A stretch of 64,000 bases of DNA from an uncultured bacterium (GTDB lineage Bacteria > Bacteroidota > Ignavibacteria > OLB7): the NCBI GenBank assembly GCA_966250335.1, contig CBINGZ010000022.1, forward strand, positions 11,218-75,217, given 5' to 3'. The notes beneath the pieces are model-generated. The model was given only the letters and a program-made list of their open reading frames with translations. It did no database searches and had not been told where the DNA came from. Positions 38,640-49,021 of this stretch are shown here, piece after piece (position 1 is the first letter of the stretch; each line of letters starts with the position of its first letter). The position numbers were made by a program, and so were the translations under genes.

Positions 38640-38886
38640 GATAGATGGTCGTGTAAATTCTTCGAAATGATCTGCTGTCCGTTTTCAGGAATTCGTACGG
38701 ATTCCGGACAGATTCCGGATCAAGGTCGTGTGTGCCAACACTGAATTTTCCTGAATTTCGGGGAGATATGGTGTTGGCACGATTATTATATGTACCTCCG
38801 CTATCGGTGTGAGGACCGATCAGAATAATTGAATCCGCCCGAGGGCGGAACCAGGTACAGGTACAGGTAAACGAGGAGATTCCCTA
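38640..38886 (+). promoter_or_regulatory. Upstream regulatory region of pilin-like cassette 1 carrying inverted repeats and a TGGCAC box
   Basis: IR CTGTCCG (38675-38681) / CGGACAG (38705-38711). Direct repeat attccgga x2 (38701-38719). Near-perfect IR tGTGCCAACAC (38731-38741) / GTGTTGGCACg (38771-38780), whose right arm contains TGGCAC (38775-38780). Palindrome TCCGCCC-gag-GGGCGGA (38834-38849). SD-like GAGGAG 8 nt before the ATG. Confidence 0.35.
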
Positions 38887-39435
38887 ATGCAGAAGCAGGT
38901 CATTGCCCTCGCGGCAGCGTCCGCCATGGCACTTATCGGCGCGGCCGGAGTGCAGGCACAGTCCGCGTCGGTCAACAGCACCGCGACCATCGTCACGCCG
39001 ATCACGGCAAACGCCACCGCCCCCCTGGCGTTCGGGACGATCAACAAAGGCGCTACATCTTCGGTTGCAGCCACGAGCGCTTCGGCAGGCGCCGCAACGT
39101 TCAGCGGAGATGAGGGGGATAACATCACGGTCTCCGTTCCGGCAACGGCGACGATCAACACGACCTCGGGCGCGGGCTCAAGCATGACGGTCACGCTCAA
39201 CCGCGCTTCGCTGCGGTCGAACACGACGAGCGCCCAGGGATCGGCCACGACGCTCGACGCATCGAGCGGTTCGGCTGCGGCAAACCTGAGCACGGACGGA
39301 AGCGGTGACGGCACCGCCAGCGACGGCCTCGGCCAGCTCTACGTCTGGATCGGCGGCTCGGTCACGCCGGCGGCTGCACAGCAGCGCGGCACCTACAGCG
39401 GCACGTTTACGGTCAGCGCAGTCTATTCGAACTGA
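38887..39435 (+). CDS. Secreted pilin-like subunit, SCPU (spore-coat-protein-U)/DUF4402-like, paralog 1 of 3
   Basis: 182 aa with signal peptide (MQKQVIALAAASAMALIGAAGVQAQ). Low-complexity A/S/T/G-rich beta-type sequence. C-terminal YVWIGGSVTPAAAQQRGTYSGTFTVSAVYSN is like the SCPU/DUF4402 C-terminal strand. ~75% identical to 40944..41480 and 43685..44227. Confidence 0.6.
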   Translation: MQKQVIALAAASAMALIGAAGVQAQSASVNSTATIVTPITANATAPLAFGTINKGATSSVAATSASAGAATFSGDEGDNITVSVPATATINTTSGAGSSMTVTLNRASLRSNTTSAQGSATTLDASSGSAAANLSTDGSGDGTASDGLGQLYVWIGGSVTPAAAQQRGTYSGTFTVSAVYSN

Positions 39436-39492
39436 CCCCGAAGACCCTGTTCGATAGTGAGGGGTAGCCCCCCTGCCCCTAGCTTCGATCTG

Positions 39493-39540
39493 CCGGTCCG
39501 CACGAATAAGATTCTTCGTGCGGACCGGTTTATTTTCTAA
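39493..39540 (+). terminator. Rho-independent terminator after pilin-like gene 1
   Basis: CCGGTCCGCACGAA-taagattc-TTCGTGCGGACCGG (14-bp stem) followed by TTTATTTTC. Confidence 0.65.
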
Positions 39541-45909: not shown

Positions 45910-46398
45910 ATGACAGAGATCTGGACAATGGCAATCCGACACACGATAGCGATAGTGACGATGATGATCCTCTGCACGGTCACGACGGCGTTCTCACAGA
46001 CCGTCATGGGACTCGACGGTCTCGATTTCGGATCGCTCTATCGTTCGTCGACCGGCAGCATCGAGTATATCTCGAACGCCGCCGCCCAGTTCTCGGTCGT
46101 TGCCAAGGAGAAGAAGACGATCCGTCTTACCGTCACGGTCGTCAACCTCAAGCGCGATTCGAAGACGCTCCCGATCACGGTGACCAACAACGACTGCGCC
46201 TACAGTCTGGATGACGGCGCCAACTGGATCACCTTCTCCACCGGCTCCCTCTATCAGGATATTCCGATCCCGAAGGACAATGACAAGGGGAATCGCGAGA
46301 CGATTCTGGTGAGAGTGGGGGGATCGGTGACGGCATCGGCGACGCAGCAGCGCGGCAACTACAGCGGAACGGTATCTCTCTCCGTATCATACATCTGA
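45910..46398 (+). CDS. Divergent SCPU/DUF4402-like minor subunit (tip/adaptor candidate)
   Basis: 162 aa, hydrophobic N-terminus. C-terminal LVRVGGSVTASATQQRGNYSGTVSLSVSYI is homologous to the major-subunit C-terminus. A TGGCATAATTCTTATA box lies ~110 nt upstream. Confidence 0.5.
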   Translation: MTEIWTMAIRHTIAIVTMMILCTVTTAFSQTVMGLDGLDFGSLYRSSTGSIEYISNAAAQFSVVAKEKKTIRLTVTVVNLKRDSKTLPITVTNNDCAYSLDDGANWITFSTGSLYQDIPIPKDNDKGNRETILVRVGGSVTASATQQRGNYSGTVSLSVSYI

Positions 46399-46429
46399 CA
46401 TCAATAAGGCTTCCCAGATAATCTTCCCG

Positions 46430-49021
46430 ATGAAACGCTCCCTCCTCATACTGCTCCTCACCCTTTTCCAGGTCGCCGTCGCGGTGGCCGACGGGGAAGG
46501 GTCGGCGCCCGAGGGTGAGGGCGATCTGCTCGATTACGAGCAGGTCTCCCCCTCCGAGGATGGACTTGTGCTGATCGAGGTCCCGGGCGTTGCCTCGCAG
46601 GACTTCATGGCCCGTTTCACCGGCGACACGCTCTATGTTCCCTTCATCGCCTTCTGCGATTTCCTCCGGATCAAGAGCTCGATCACCCCGGACGCGCTGG
46701 TGATGAGCGGTCAGGTGGGGATGGAGAAGGCGTTCGAGATCTCCCGCGTCACAAGCACGGCGGATGTCGAGGGAAAGATCATCCCGTTCAATCCCGCACT
46801 GATCCGGGTGGTCGGCGGCGATATCTACATCGAGCAGGCGCTCCTTGCCAGGATTCTCGGAGTTACTTCGTTCTTCGACCCGATGCGCCTGAAGCTCCGT
46901 GTCACCCCCGACGAGCGGATCCCGCTGGTCAAGCTGAAGCACAACAAGGGACGCTACGCGGCGCTCTCCTTCGAGGAGCGGCTTCCCGGCATCCCGATGC
47001 AGGCGGCGGAGATGGGACGGAAGGCGATCAGCGGCCCGATGCTGAACTGGTCGCTCTCGAACAGCTTCAATCCCGGTTCGAACGGCGCCACGACGATGTC
47101 GATCCGGCTGGGACAGCAGGCTCTCTTCGGCACGCTGGAGATGAACGGCATCATGTCCCATACCCAGGCCGGGAGCGCGGCGACGTTCGACGCGCGTCTG
47201 GAGTCGTGGAGCTGGAGATTCCAGGAGCCGACCTCTCCCTTCTTCAAGCAGTTGATCTTCGGCACCCTCAACATCGCCGATCGCCGCCGGTACGGTGTCG
47301 AGATCACGAACGCTCCCCTTGCTCCGCGGATCGGCTTCAGCATGTATAATCTGACGGGGCTTACCCGTCCCGACTGGACCGTGGAGATGTACGACGGCAA
47401 CCGTCTGGTCGATGTGGTCCATGCCGACAGCGCCGGACGCTACACCTTCCGGGTTCCGGTGAGCTACGGGACGGTCGACCGCGTCCTCCGTCAGATCGGC
47501 CCGAACGGGGAGGAGATCTTCGAGAACCGCCGTCTGGAGATCAACCAGCAGATGCTCCCCGCCGGCGAGGTGGAATATCTGATCCAGGGGGGCGCCGACA
47601 GTCTCGACCGTCGTTCATCCGGCGGCGCCGTCGCCCTGCTGAACGCGGGGGTGACCGAATGGCTGACCCTCGGCACCGAGGCGACCTACCGTGCGCCGAA
47701 CGTCGACACATGGTCGGCCGACAGCGTCGATCCGGCGGCGAACGCCACGCTCTGGTTCGGCGGTTCCACGTCGGTCGGTCTCAAGTATCAGGTCCGCTCG
47801 CGGATCGTCGCCGGCGACTTCTACACGATCTCCTCGGACAACACGATGATCCGTGTCGGCGTCGACTCTCTCCTGATCGACGACGCCACCTTCCGGTCGA
47901 CCGTCGCCACGAATTTGGCGGTGGGGCAGCTCTCCTTCGGCGGCAGCGTCATGTACGGGCGGCGGTCGTGGGGGGATGAATTCCAGGTGGTTCCGCAGGT
48001 CTCGGGCTACGCGGCGGGGATCAACTTCATCGCCTCGACCCGCTTCACCCGCGCCTCGATCAAGGGAATGGTCGAAGAGTCGATCACCAACGACATCGCC
48101 AGCTCGCTTCGTCTGATGATCTCCCCGGTGAACGGGGCGCTCATCTCGGCCGGCGCGTCGTACGATCACACGGACAATCAGCTCTCCACGCTCGACCTTT
48201 CGGCCTACTACCGGTTCAGCGATCATGTCGGCGTGAATATCGGCTACACGGTTCCCGATCTCGACTGGCGGCGCGGCATGCTGCAGGCGTCGGTCGCGCT
48301 CGATCTCAACTCGCTCCGCGCGACGGCGTCGACCACCTATCGTGAAGGGCACATGGAGGCGAGCTCCTTCGCCCAGGGGAGCGCGGTGGTCACGGGACAG
48401 GGGGTCCGCACCTTCAGCGATCTGACGATCGGCCAGGCGGCGATCATCGTCCAGGCGTTCCGCGACGAGAACAACAACGGGATTCACGATTCGGGCGAGG
48501 AGTGGCTCTCCTCTCCTCCGGCCAGGATGACCGTCAGCGGCTCCAGCGTCACGGCTCAGGAAGGTCTCTTCCGCGCGGTTCCGGCCAACCGGGAGTGCAT
48601 GGTGGAGATCGACAGGTGGGATTACGCCGACGAGAACATCTATCCCTCGCGCACGCGCTTCAGCATCTACTCCCTTCCGAGCGGCGTGCATACGATCGAG
48701 GTTCCCTATGCCGAAGGGAACGACGTCACGGGAACCTGCAAGGTGGAAGGGGAGACGGAAGCGAAGTCCTCCGCCTTCGTCAACGGGCTGCGCGTGCAGC
48801 TCCTTTCCGAGAAGAGCGGCGCCATCTACGACGGCGAGATCTTCTCCGACGGCACCATGTTCTTCGCCGGTGTCACGGCCGGTGAGTTCAGGCTCAAGTT
48901 CGACGACGACCAGCTCACCAGCCGCCGCCTCTGCCGCGTCTCCGGTCCCGAGACCGTGACGCTGGATGGGGCGACGACCCGGATTCCGGAGGGGATCGTC
49001 TTCAAGCGCTGCACGAAATAA
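46430..49021 (+). CDS. Large secreted outer-membrane protein, putative fimbrial usher of the chaperone-usher locus
   Basis: 863 aa (usher size) with signal peptide MKRSLLILLLTLFQVAVAVADG. Beta-rich composition. Placed immediately after the chaperone and minor subunit. I cannot name a diagnostic usher motif, so the call is by context and size. Confidence 0.4.
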   Translation: MKRSLLILLLTLFQVAVAVADGEGSAPEGEGDLLDYEQVSPSEDGLVLIEVPGVASQDFMARFTGDTLYVPFIAFCDFLRIKSSITPDALVMSGQVGMEKAFEISRVTSTADVEGKIIPFNPALIRVVGGDIYIEQALLARILGVTSFFDPMRLKLRVTPDERIPLVKLKHNKGRYAALSFEERLPGIPMQAAEMGRKAISGPMLNWSLSNSFNPGSNGATTMSIRLGQQALFGTLEMNGIMSHTQAGSAATFDARLESWSWRFQEPTSPFFKQLIFGTLNIADRRRYGVEITNAPLAPRIGFSMYNLTGLTRPDWTVEMYDGNRLVDVVHADSAGRYTFRVPVSYGTVDRVLRQIGPNGEEIFENRRLEINQQMLPAGEVEYLIQGGADSLDRRSSGGAVALLNAGVTEWLTLGTEATYRAPNVDTWSADSVDPAANATLWFGGSTSVGLKYQVRSRIVAGDFYTISSDNTMIRVGVDSLLIDDATFRSTVATNLAVGQLSFGGSVMYGRRSWGDEFQVVPQVSGYAAGINFIASTRFTRASIKGMVEESITNDIASSLRLMISPVNGALISAGASYDHTDNQLSTLDLSAYYRFSDHVGVNIGYTVPDLDWRRGMLQASVALDLNSLRATASTTYREGHMEASSFAQGSAVVTGQGVRTFSDLTIGQAAIIVQAFRDENNNGIHDSGEEWLSSPPARMTVSGSSVTAQEGLFRAVPANRECMVEIDRWDYADENIYPSRTRFSIYSLPSGVHTIEVPYAEGNDVTGTCKVEGETEAKSSAFVNGLRVQLLSEKSGAIYDGEIFSDGTMFFAGVTAGEFRLKFDDDQLTSRRLCRVSGPETVTLDGATTRIPEGIVFKRCTK

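Follow-up and report, generated by a model that had tools for sequence, protein, structure and literature searches.

A putative chaperone-usher type pilus locus with DUF4402 subunits and dispersed pilin genes in an uncultured bacterium of the Bacteroidota

Introduction

Fibre assembly in Gram-negative bacteria has its textbook model in chaperone-usher pili. In such fibres a subunit without a donor strand can be incorporated only as the first one and so occupies the distal tip, as do FimH, PapG and CsuE. The genes analysed here lie within a stretch of 64 kb (64,000 nt, hereafter called the window) of contig CBINGZ010000022.1, from an uncultured bacterium, and are predicted to encode a pilus machine which is related to the known chaperone-usher systems yet clearly separate from them. 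The locus consists of three pilin genes which look separately transcribed, one decayed pilin copy and the genes of a chaperone, a minor subunit and an usher, with one promoter-like motif in common; all of the pilus genes are on the + strand (Table 1). It very likely represents a chaperone-usher type system for a surface fibre (pilus), belonging to an uncharacterised clade with subunits of the DUF4402 family.

A preliminary description of the same DNA had placed the locus in the archaic, Csu-type family and had attributed it to an organism of the FCB group. Every open reading frame (ORF) which it named was found again at its position. Archaic systems have been reported only in Proteobacteria, Cyanobacteria and Deinococcus-Thermus (PMC4654587). 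Literature searches on DUF4402/PF14352 or on chaperone-usher systems in Bacteroidetes/Bacteroidota/Kapabacteria found nothing relevant. In the literature searched, the subunit family, the N-terminal region of the usher, the phylum and the dispersed regulon of pilin cassettes are undescribed, and the usher family is without a curated model; the machinery itself is recognisably chaperone-usher, that is, of a known kind. Related loci and proteins are referred to below by numbers with the prefixes L and P, respectively.

Results

Homology of the chaperone and the usher

The protein encoded from position 44773 is PapD-like, as had been proposed, and on this Pfam PapD_N, the fold of its model, Foldseek and profile homology all agree. 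Its AlphaFold2 model, based on 38 homologues, had a pLDDT (predicted local distance difference test) of 91 and consisted of two beta-sandwich domains. When compared with the Protein Data Bank (PDB) by Foldseek, the model matched Caf1M, CsuC, EcpB, PapD, FimC, DraB, CfaA and CupB2 (E 1e-9 to 1e-8, probability 1.0), and enterococcal WxLIP proteins were also among the best PDB fold matches. Profile comparison with hhalign gave 94.7 % (E 6.1e-8) for classical and 95.4 % (E 1.8e-8) for archaic chaperones, the alignment to the classical chaperones covering only the first (N-terminal) domain. Pfam PapD_C did not detect the chaperone, and a PDB sequence search with it found nothing relevant.

The arginine of an APTR motif, which hhalign aligns to Arg8 of FimC/PapD, is present in 29 of the 38 members of the chaperone family. 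Arg169 is invariant, and is paired by hhalign with the arginine of YRP and not with Lys112 of PapD. Alternating hydrophobic residues are conserved at positions 156, 158, 160, 162 and 164, a putative G1 strand which follows a long loop of low model confidence. This pattern of residues appears compatible with donor-strand complementation, rather than being proof of it.

The 863-amino acid (aa) protein encoded downstream had no match in a Pfam scan, including the Pfam Usher family (PF00577), and in a word-indexed homologue search only four close relatives came up. These four sequences were used for an exhaustive HMMER search, which gave 2,767 cluster representatives at E<=1e-3, 543 of them at E<=1e-30. 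A family profile made from an alignment of 96 sequences was compared with ushers from annotated records. Against FimD, HtrE, EcpC, YehB and ElfC of Escherichia coli K-12, hhalign gave 98.5 % (E 2.8e-15) over 588 columns, and the aligned range (198-829 of the query, 175-834 of the template) corresponds to the barrel, the plug segment and both C-terminal domains. Against CsuD and three ushers of 'spore coat U' operons (Burkholderia, Novosphingobium, Paracoccus) the result was 98.5 % (E 3e-15). Fold searches with the usher model, an AlphaFold model from 4 sequences and of poor quality, also ranked ushers first. The beta-barrel, internal plug and periplasmic C-terminal domains of an usher are thus recognisable, and the protein is an usher homologue by profile-profile and fold comparison only, Pfam Usher being blind to it. 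Since both the 44773 and the 46430 protein have profile or fold homology to chaperones and ushers, the lack of such similarity, which in the preliminary description would have made the subunits an unrelated secreted family, was not found.

In the N-terminal region some distant usher-family proteins weakly resemble Cu_amine_oxidN1, and many (P0088, P0098, P0126, P0133, P0138, P0150) have 1000-1250 aa with C-terminal SPOR (peptidoglycan-binding) domains. PDB sequence hits of the 96-sequence profile were discarded, being generic immunoglobulin (Ig)-like repeats only (Bap, SdrD) in the plug and C-terminal regions. PDB sequence searches with the pilin, the pilin profile and the 4-sequence usher profile gave nothing relevant.

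Major and minor subunits

All four subunit proteins (ORFs 38887, 40944, 43685 and 45928) scored above the gathering cut-off of Pfam DUF4402 (PF14352), which is 25.2 bits (Table 1), in line with the preliminary assignment, and none of the four matched a model of NCBIfam. The domain is carried by all 78 homologues of major subunit 2 and also by 40/40 relatives tested. The three cassettes had been called near-identical; the identity of their proteins is 78 % (1/2), 74 % (2/3) and 62.5 % (1/3), so that they are better described as paralogues. Identical columns amount to 75-90 % at the termini of the three paralogues versus 30-45 % in the centre, around residues 100-140. The central variant of subunit 3 recurs in relatives P0212, P0224, P0234, P0235, P0245, P0247, P0262 and P0268. 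At the nucleotide level, direct-repeat families cover the pilin genes with their flanking DNA (300 nt at 65-79 % identity and 214 nt at 78-79 %), and an 85-nt block of 3' coding sequence is present in five copies, at 39352, 41397, 44144, 44610 and 46318.

In 40 major subunits the signal peptide ends in AxA followed by Q, the mature protein starts with SASVTSTATIVTPITATATAP, 22 residues ahead of an LAFG motif, and the C-terminal end reads GGSV..QQRGxYSGTFTVSAxYSN. The major subunits are free of cysteine. The conserved termini are putative assembly interfaces and the variable middle is probably exposed on the surface. Conservation of the termini together with variation in the middle suggests that the three paralogues may serve a high pilin dosage, with a mixed or condition-dependent composition of the fibre.

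The divergent subunit gene ahead of the usher gene is present as had been reported, but its start at 45910 is not retained: a start at 45928 (MAIRHTIAIV...AFS, followed by Q) is most plausible. The comparison covered 14 distinct minor subunits (15 sequences, two of which are variants from the window's own organism). The LxFG motif is preceded by 8-13 residues in the minor subunits versus 22 in the major subunits, and the minor subunits are without the 12-14-residue N-terminal extension of the major ones, which is conserved and has alternating small and hydrophobic residues. When the major subunit profile was compared with a profile of 11 SCPU (spore coat protein U) subunits, hhalign placed the N-terminus of the major subunits on the donor strand and GTLDFG motif of CsuA/B (86 %, E 4.8e-6), the match being confined to 33 N-terminal columns (strand and LxFG/GTLDFG). 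Lacking the extension, the minor protein is therefore assigned as probably a tip or initiator subunit.

Shared control regions

Each pilin gene had been described as self-contained, and each intact copy indeed has its own promoter-like region and a long, GC-rich, terminator-like hairpin. Five units, namely the three pilin genes, the remnant with the chaperone gene and the minor subunit with the usher gene, have in common an upstream block of TGTCCG...CGGA repeats and a TGGCAYGRTNNT motif. A search of the 64 kb for TGGCAYRRTTNTNNWG, with one mismatch allowed, found 5 sites versus 0.31 expected, all of them on the + strand and within the locus, one in each of the five control regions of Table 1 (from 38775, 40841, 43582, 44504 and 45845); a looser pattern found the same five (0.3-0.8 expected by chance over the two patterns). 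In L007 the motif precedes the first pilin gene and the minor subunit gene (the latter at 11046).

The same upstream layout is common to 19 pilin genes (3 of the window, 16 of related loci): tandem palindromes of the form TGTCCG-N5-6-CGGA, 60-90 nt, the block TGGCAyGrTnnT, 68-138 nt and the start codon. The -24-like element TGGCAYR is found at 5/5 sites of the window and 22/23 sites across genomes, the exception being L017 with TGGCGT. All of the 23 compiled sites have a T at position 12, and downstream of the block they share no conserved -10-like element. Taken by itself, the pattern GTCCG-N4-9-CGGAC of the palindromes was not enriched in the window (3 found versus 2.9 expected), and the case for the repeats is made by their fixed position and cross-genome conservation, not by their count.

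The consensus of sigma-54 promoters is TGGCACG-N4-TTGCW, and the block TGGCAyGrTnnT fits its -26 to -15 part. A sigma-70 reading was rejected, since TGGCAC as a -35 element leaves a spacer of 12-13 nt to TATTAT in the remnant and no -10-like element is conserved. In L005/L027 and L017, sigma-54 activators of the GAFTGA type, a response regulator and a PAS/GAF histidine kinase are encoded just after the usher, in convergent orientation, and the pilin genes of these loci carry the motif (TGGCAT in L005/L027, TGGCGT in L017). Control of pili by sigma-54 is common (PMC3162934).

Regulated or alternating expression had been suggested before; all units sharing one promoter type argues for co-regulation rather than alternation, and it is likely that the five form one co-regulated regulon. 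Dependence of the units on sigma-54 with an activator of the NtrC type is, judging from the motif, somewhat likely.

As proposed earlier, a leader (73 % identity over 98 nt, 90 % in a 42-nt core) and an almost identical terminator stem are common to cassettes 2 and 3, and those of cassette 1 are different. The 5' leaders (38791-38886, 40857-40943 and 43598-43684) are about 70-110 nt long and A/C-rich, with a small hairpin in each close to where transcription is predicted to begin, e.g. GGCGATTACGCC at 40873-40884. A Shine-Dalgarno sequence, GAGGAG, is present in cassette 1 and absent from cassettes 2 and 3. An Rfam scan of the whole window gave zero matches, so that the leaders are unexplained by any known RNA element, and a tRNA scan of the window found none.

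A decayed fourth cassette

The remnant between cassette 3 and the chaperone gene, listed before as an ORF for a secreted subunit, is derived from a pilin gene but is not a functional gene: three deletions and a frameshift distinguish it from cassette 2, and it is without a signal peptide, i.e. it is a pseudogene. Its leader (44416-44543) is 87-93 % identical to the repeat and promoter region of cassette 2, and the 3' part of the cassette 2 gene is matched at 89-91 % identity by the segments 44559-44604 and 44610-44694. The losses comprise about 405 nt, covering the rest of the 5' untranslated region and about 114 codons, and two small deletions, one of which shifts the frame. The remaining ORF at 44543 has 63 codons, and its ATG was made by a deletion junction.

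The promoter-like region of the remnant sits directly upstream of the chaperone gene, and no terminator was found after the remnant. A hairpin placed like the one which abuts the chaperone start codon is found between the major subunit and chaperone genes of L005, L007, L017, L019, L022 and L028-L030. In the simplest reading, the operon's own major pilin gene would have decayed and its promoter would have been kept to drive the chaperone gene; the remnant region is probably now the promoter region of that gene. Another lone C-terminal pilin fragment (L033, 7013-7186, profile positions 125-182) was observed in mid-contig in another metagenome-assembled genome (MAG), about 6-12 kb from the full operon L022 on the same contig.

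Table 1 Features of the pilus locus and of the genes interspersed with it (positions in the window)
Feature	Position	Strand	Remarks
MarR-family regulator gene	38115..38639	+	Pfam MarR, E 2.4e-9; directly upstream of cassette 1
Cassette 1 control region	38676..38790	+	TGTCCG...CGGA repeats 38676-38719; TGGCACGATTAT motif 38775-38790
Major subunit 1, 182 aa	38887..39435	+	Sec signal peptide, then DUF4402; PF14352 36.7 bits; family hidden Markov model 270.7 bits
Cassette 1 intrinsic terminator	39492..39539 (hairpin 39492-39529)	+	15-bp stem, then T-run; -32.3 kcal/mol, z -7.25
Pirin gene	39612-40622		Between cassettes 1 and 2
Cassette 2 control region	40752..40856	+	TGTCCGAA...TTCCGGACA repeats 40752-40793; TGGCACAATTATGCAG motif 40841-40856
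Major subunit 2, 178 aa	40944..41480	+	PF14352 39.0 bits
Cassette 2 intrinsic terminator	41560..41598 (hairpin 41560-41588)	+	13-bp stem, then TTTTTTT; -22.1 kcal/mol, z -2.4
Ada gene	41726-42814		Between cassettes 2 and 3
PF09859 DNA-repair oxygenase gene	42798-43322		Between cassettes 2 and 3; with Ada an adaptive-response DNA repair pair
Cassette 3 control region	43494..43597	+	Repeats 43494-43535; TGGCACGATTCTGAAG motif 43582-43597
Major subunit 3, 180 aa	43685..44227	+	PF14352 43.5 bits; second allele class, central sequence '...RHTGLVNVPSNGAS...'
Cassette 3 intrinsic terminator	44305..44344 (hairpin 44305-44334)	+	13-bp stem, then T-run; -22.2 kcal/mol, z -4.6
Pilin remnant	44416..44694	+	Repeats 44416-44457; TGGCAC motif 44504-44519 intact; 3' pilin fragment 44543-44694
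GC-rich hairpin without U-tract	44738..44769	+	Abuts chaperone start codon; 86-nt segment as a whole not significant, z -1.2
PapD-like periplasmic chaperone, 291 aa	44773..45648	+	PapD_N 26.7 bits (cut-off 23)
Internal control region before minor subunit	45744..45860	+	TGTCCG.../TGTACGG...CAGACA repeats 45744-45791; TGGCATAATTCTTATA motif 45845-45860
Minor DUF4402 subunit, 156 aa	45928..46398	+	PF14352 34.1-34.4 bits; longest ORF from 45910
Outer-membrane usher homologue, 863 aa	46430..49021	+	Divergent N-terminal region; beta-barrel with inserted plug-like beta-sandwich; C-terminal beta-sandwich domains

Distribution in related genomes

The gene order major subunit, chaperone, minor subunit (one to three genes), usher is found in L005/L027, L017, L019, L022, L026 and L028-L032. 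The ancestral operon has the order major subunit, hairpin, chaperone, minor subunit and usher, as in 10 related loci, and it is split in the window. More distant versions, with chaperones 26-29 % identical, consist of several DUF4402 genes, a chaperone gene and an usher gene for about 855 aa; they were seen on one contig of Zixibacteria, on another contig with cargo genes of the type IX secretion system, and on a third next to gidAB-parAB.

Close relatives of the major subunits were found in six MAGs of the species-representative genome set, labelled Kapaibacterium, Kapaibacteriota, Chlorobiota (two MAGs) and Bacteroidota, the sixth being labelled Alphaproteobacteria, which is probably a mislabel. 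The attribution to the FCB group agrees with the nearest named relatives, which are MAGs of Kapaibacterium, Chlorobiota and Bacteroidota; that group includes Bacteroidota, to which Kapaibacterium is assigned. Each related MAG has several major pilin copies (at least 2-7 detected), with one or two complete operons where assembled and the remaining copies as orphans. Among ten genes flanking the orphan cassettes in other MAGs no transposase or integrase was found, and an origin of the cassettes from a mobile element was rejected because these flanking genes are ordinary ones. Contigs were observed to end in or next to a major pilin gene in L001 and L002 (same organism, European Nucleotide Archive assemblies), L031, L032 and L034-L036. 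Multi-copy cassettes evidently break short-read assemblies, and the copy numbers of the MAGs are thus probably underestimates.

Neighbouring genes

The three pilin cassettes described as an array were all found, but they are not contiguous: the pirin, Ada and PF09859 oxygenase genes lie in between. In the syntenic relative L007 two pilin genes are side by side, without these inserts. The gene order TMEM260-like, MarR, DUF4402 recurs in L007, and the MarR gene is a neighbour and a possible local regulator. Just upstream of it and of cassette 1 is a tandem pair of genes for TMEM260-like protein O-mannosyltransferase homologues (33966-35930 and 35968-37995, +; PF11028, E 7e-26 and 3e-30). As the pilins are very Ser/Thr-rich and these genes are nearby, O-glycosylation of the pilins by the TMEM260-like enzymes may be considered a possibility.

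Directly after the usher gene is an ORF of 114 aa (49131-49475, +) without a Pfam match, which is kept in other assemblies of the same organism; L007 has an MscL gene after the usher and no counterpart of this ORF. Farther upstream in the window, two giant ORFs were observed on the + strand, at 6875-15007 (2710 aa) and 15867-23939 (2690 aa). At the C-terminus of the latter is an EndoU nuclease domain of the bacterial type (PF14436, E 2e-11), so that it may be a giant protein of the polymorphic-toxin type; the former had no Pfam match.

Discussion

Proposed assembly

Chaperone and usher homology, DUF4402 membership, the conserved operon, the repeated promoter-to-terminator cassettes and the shared motif were read from the sequences, and the assembly steps are drawn from chaperone-usher systems. 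The pilins would pass the inner membrane via Sec and be captured by the PapD-like chaperone, presumably with the five alternating hydrophobic residues of its putative G1 strand. The chaperone would hand them to the usher, where the N-terminal extension of the incoming pilin (SASVTSTATIVTPI) would displace the chaperone strand by donor-strand exchange. The minor subunit, having no such extension, could enter only as the first subunit and would form the distal tip. As to expression, the promoter-like region of the remnant would drive the chaperone gene, the minor subunit and usher genes would be on their own copy of the promoter motif, and the three pilin paralogues would be transcribed from separate promoter-to-terminator cassettes.

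Several observations weigh against this proposal or its control part. Residues 1 to about 198 of the usher, the would-be chaperone-docking domain, did not align with classical or archaic ushers. The incomplete-Ig fold of the subunits and their donor-strand complementation are themselves suppositions taken over from related fibres; the subunit profile had no significant similarity to classical pilins and Caf1, and matched SCPU only over the short N-terminal segment. As regards sigma-54, the canonical -12 GC, ten bases after GG, is present at 0/23 sites (at 3/23 one base closer), and no gene for an NtrC-type activator or rpoN was found within the 64-kb window.

Placement among chaperone-usher classes

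The archaic, Csu-type label was not borne out, as there are no SCPU subunits, the usher and the chaperone are equidistant from the classes and there is no CsuE-like adhesin. None of 40 major subunits matched SCPU (PF05229) at E<=10, and the profile match to SCPU subunits is the one of 33 N-terminal columns. The usher profile is at E 3e-15 from archaic and 2.8e-15 from classical ushers, whereas these two are at 8.7e-35 from each other over 723 columns including the N-terminal domain, and for the chaperone the corresponding values are 1.8e-8 and 6.1e-8 versus 4.1e-14 over both domains; these distances are hhalign profile scores, which vary with alignment depth, and no tree underlies them. No two-domain tip adhesin like CsuE follows the usher, in comparison with the Csu, Burkholderia, Novosphingobium and Paracoccus operons: the next ORF is the one at 49131-49475 and no SCPU gene of CsuE size was found. 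The marks of the classical family were also lacking, with no Pfam Usher match and with the subunit profile aligning to 12 E. coli pilins over the signal peptide only (17 %). On the features tested, the locus is therefore placed in the chaperone-usher superfamily but outside the archaic family, seemingly as a clade of its own which has diverged further and has DUF4402 subunits.

In a wider and more tentative reading, which we consider plausible but would not yet favour, DUF4402 pilins, PapD-like chaperones and Pfam-invisible ushers would constitute a fourth deep-branching chaperone-usher class beside the classical, alternate and archaic ones. It would be widespread in metagenomes (2,767 usher-family cluster representatives), in the FCB group, Zixibacteria and probably other phyla, and the Kapaibacterium-like lineage would have evolved a dispersed cassette regulon with an atypical sigma-54-type promoter without the -12 GC, uncoupling pilin supply from the assembly machinery.

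Alternative explanations

The locus could be a true archaic (sigma, Csu-type) member which has diverged too far for Pfam. The N-terminus of the subunits does align to the donor strand and GTLDFG motif of CsuA/B (hhalign 86 %, E 4.8e-6), the chaperone model has CsuC among its best structural matches, and outside Proteobacteria no chaperone-usher class but the archaic one has been reported (PMC4654587). The failure of all 40 subunits to match SCPU even at E<=10, the equal distance of the usher from archaic and classical/alternate ushers, which share even their N-terminal domain, the like result for the chaperones and the absence of a two-domain tip adhesin after the usher nevertheless make this very unlikely, and the cysteines of SCPU (C39 and C86 in the alignment of SCPU subunits) are without a counterpart in the cysteine-free major subunits. 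A question of product rather than of ancestry is whether the subunits would form a discrete pilus or an amorphous or capsule-like coat of thin polymers, as do Caf1 of Yersinia F1 and spore coat protein U of Myxococcus. A coat would suit a minimal system with single-domain subunits only and no lectin-type adhesin, an FGL-like chaperone with a long loop of low confidence before a strand of five alternating hydrophobic residues, and the very high output suggested by three pilin genes; the pilin termini also look Caf1-like (TATIVTP versus TATLVEP, GNYSGTFTVS versus GKYTDAVTVT). The similarity to Caf1 is, however, not significant (hhalign 22 %), and a special subunit which lacks the donor strand implies that the fibre is ordered and has a defined tip, so that we regard a coat as rather unlikely; it would alter the morphology of the product and not the mechanism of assembly.

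The extra cassettes of the proposed pilus might serve antigenic or phase variation, either with one copy expressed at a time or with copies and remnants as recombination donors, comparable to pilE/pilS of Neisseria. Related genomes do have several copies each (at least 2-7 detected per MAG), C-terminal pilin fragments occur in the window (44543-44694) and in L033, the variation is centred in the probably exposed middle between conserved ends which could support recombination, and the 87-93 % identity of the remnant to cassette 2 points to recent exchange. But none of the intact copies looks silent, as each is complete with promoter-like region, signal peptide and terminator; the same control motif on all copies predicts co-expression, two allele classes are kept across genomes as in stable paralogues that are not shuffled, and the surroundings of the cassettes sampled contained neither an invertible element nor a gene for a recombinase or transposase. 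Variation of this kind is thus held to be improbable. As to the factor behind the co-regulation, the shared motif may not be a sigma-54 promoter and may be used by another regulator or sigma factor, with the adjacent MarR protein acting on the TGTCCG...CGGA palindromes or an extracytoplasmic function (ECF)-type sigma factor acting on TGGCAYG. The absence of the canonical -12 GC from 23/23 sites, the lack of an activator gene or rpoN in the window, the MarR gene directly upstream (an arrangement repeated in L007) and the TTGACA-N16-TATATT which the second pilin gene of L007 has in place of the motif all point in this direction. Against it, the conserved block is 12 nt long and not followed by a conserved -10-like element, TGGCAYG fits the -24 element of sigma-54 promoters and the T at position 12 fits -15, and the tandem palindromes are 60-90 nt upstream, a typical distance for enhancer-binding proteins. 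Moreover, in two related genomes the operon is flanked by genes for GAFTGA activators and a histidine kinase, and the pilin genes there have the motif or a one-base variant of it, and the motif also precedes orphan pilin genes with no MarR gene nearby. Control by another factor is accordingly considered possible, if doubtful.

Significance

If the chaperone-usher reading is true, a homologous machine with another subunit family and another N-terminal domain of the usher, in Bacteroidota-like bacteria and Zixibacteria, would widen the range of the pathway and provide an outgroup for the evolution of donor-strand assembly. It would also give a function to DUF4402 and to a family with thousands of metagenome cluster representatives. 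The split architecture, with stand-alone pilins, a decayed pilin in the operon and one control motif, poses the question of how stoichiometry is controlled, and the motif that of whether a sigma-54 promoter can function when the -12 GC is missing. In practical terms the significance is modest, as the bacteria are uncultured environmental ones.

Comparison with known systems

The archaic Csu system of Acinetobacter baumannii (CsuA/B, CsuA, CsuB, CsuC, CsuD, CsuE) has a like gene set of small secreted subunits, a PapD-like chaperone and an usher. Its usher and chaperone are detectably homologous to those of the window (hhalign 98.5 % and 95.4 %, respectively), and both kinds of system occur outside beta- and gamma-Proteobacteria. 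They differ in that the subunits are SCPU proteins there and DUF4402 proteins without cysteines here, and a two-domain adhesin, CsuE, there stands against a single-domain subunit without a donor strand here. The gene order is here major subunit, chaperone, minor subunit, usher, the N-terminal region of the usher is unrelated, and Pfam Usher and PapD_C miss the proteins.

The F1 system of Yersinia pestis (Caf1, Caf1M, Caf1A) is likewise minimal, with single-domain subunits and a chaperone with a long loop before the putative donor strand. The S/T/A-rich N-terminal strand and the C-terminal strand G-x-Y-S/T...T-V look alike, without statistical support, and homology to Caf1 was rejected (hhalign 22 %, not significant). 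F1 has one subunit gene and an AraC-type regulator, whereas three paralogues, a minor subunit and a sigma-54-like motif are found here.

In its control regions the locus resembles pilin genes under sigma-54 and NtrC-type activators (a general link reviewed in PMC3162934), such as type IV pilA under PilR-PilS, with TGGCAYG at the -24 position, palindromes 60-90 nt upstream and, in two related genomes, an activator and a kinase by the operon. It differs from these in the missing -12 GC (23/23), in having no regulator gene in the window and in its target, which is a chaperone-usher system and not a type IV pilin.

With the classical and alternate pili of E. coli (Fim, Yad, Yeh, Elf, Ecp) the locus has in common the barrel, plug and C-terminal domains of the usher, which align at 98.5 % over 588 columns, and the N-terminal domain of the chaperone, which aligns including the TR(V) motif at Arg8 of FimC/PapD. 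Operons of the pap and fim type have a hairpin after the major subunit gene, and a hairpin is likewise found there in the present system. The pilins of the classical pili belong to the family Fimbrial (PF00419), with which DUF4402 has no similarity, and the present organism is of another phylum. The major pilins described here are multi-copy and dispersed, each in an apparent transcription unit of its own.

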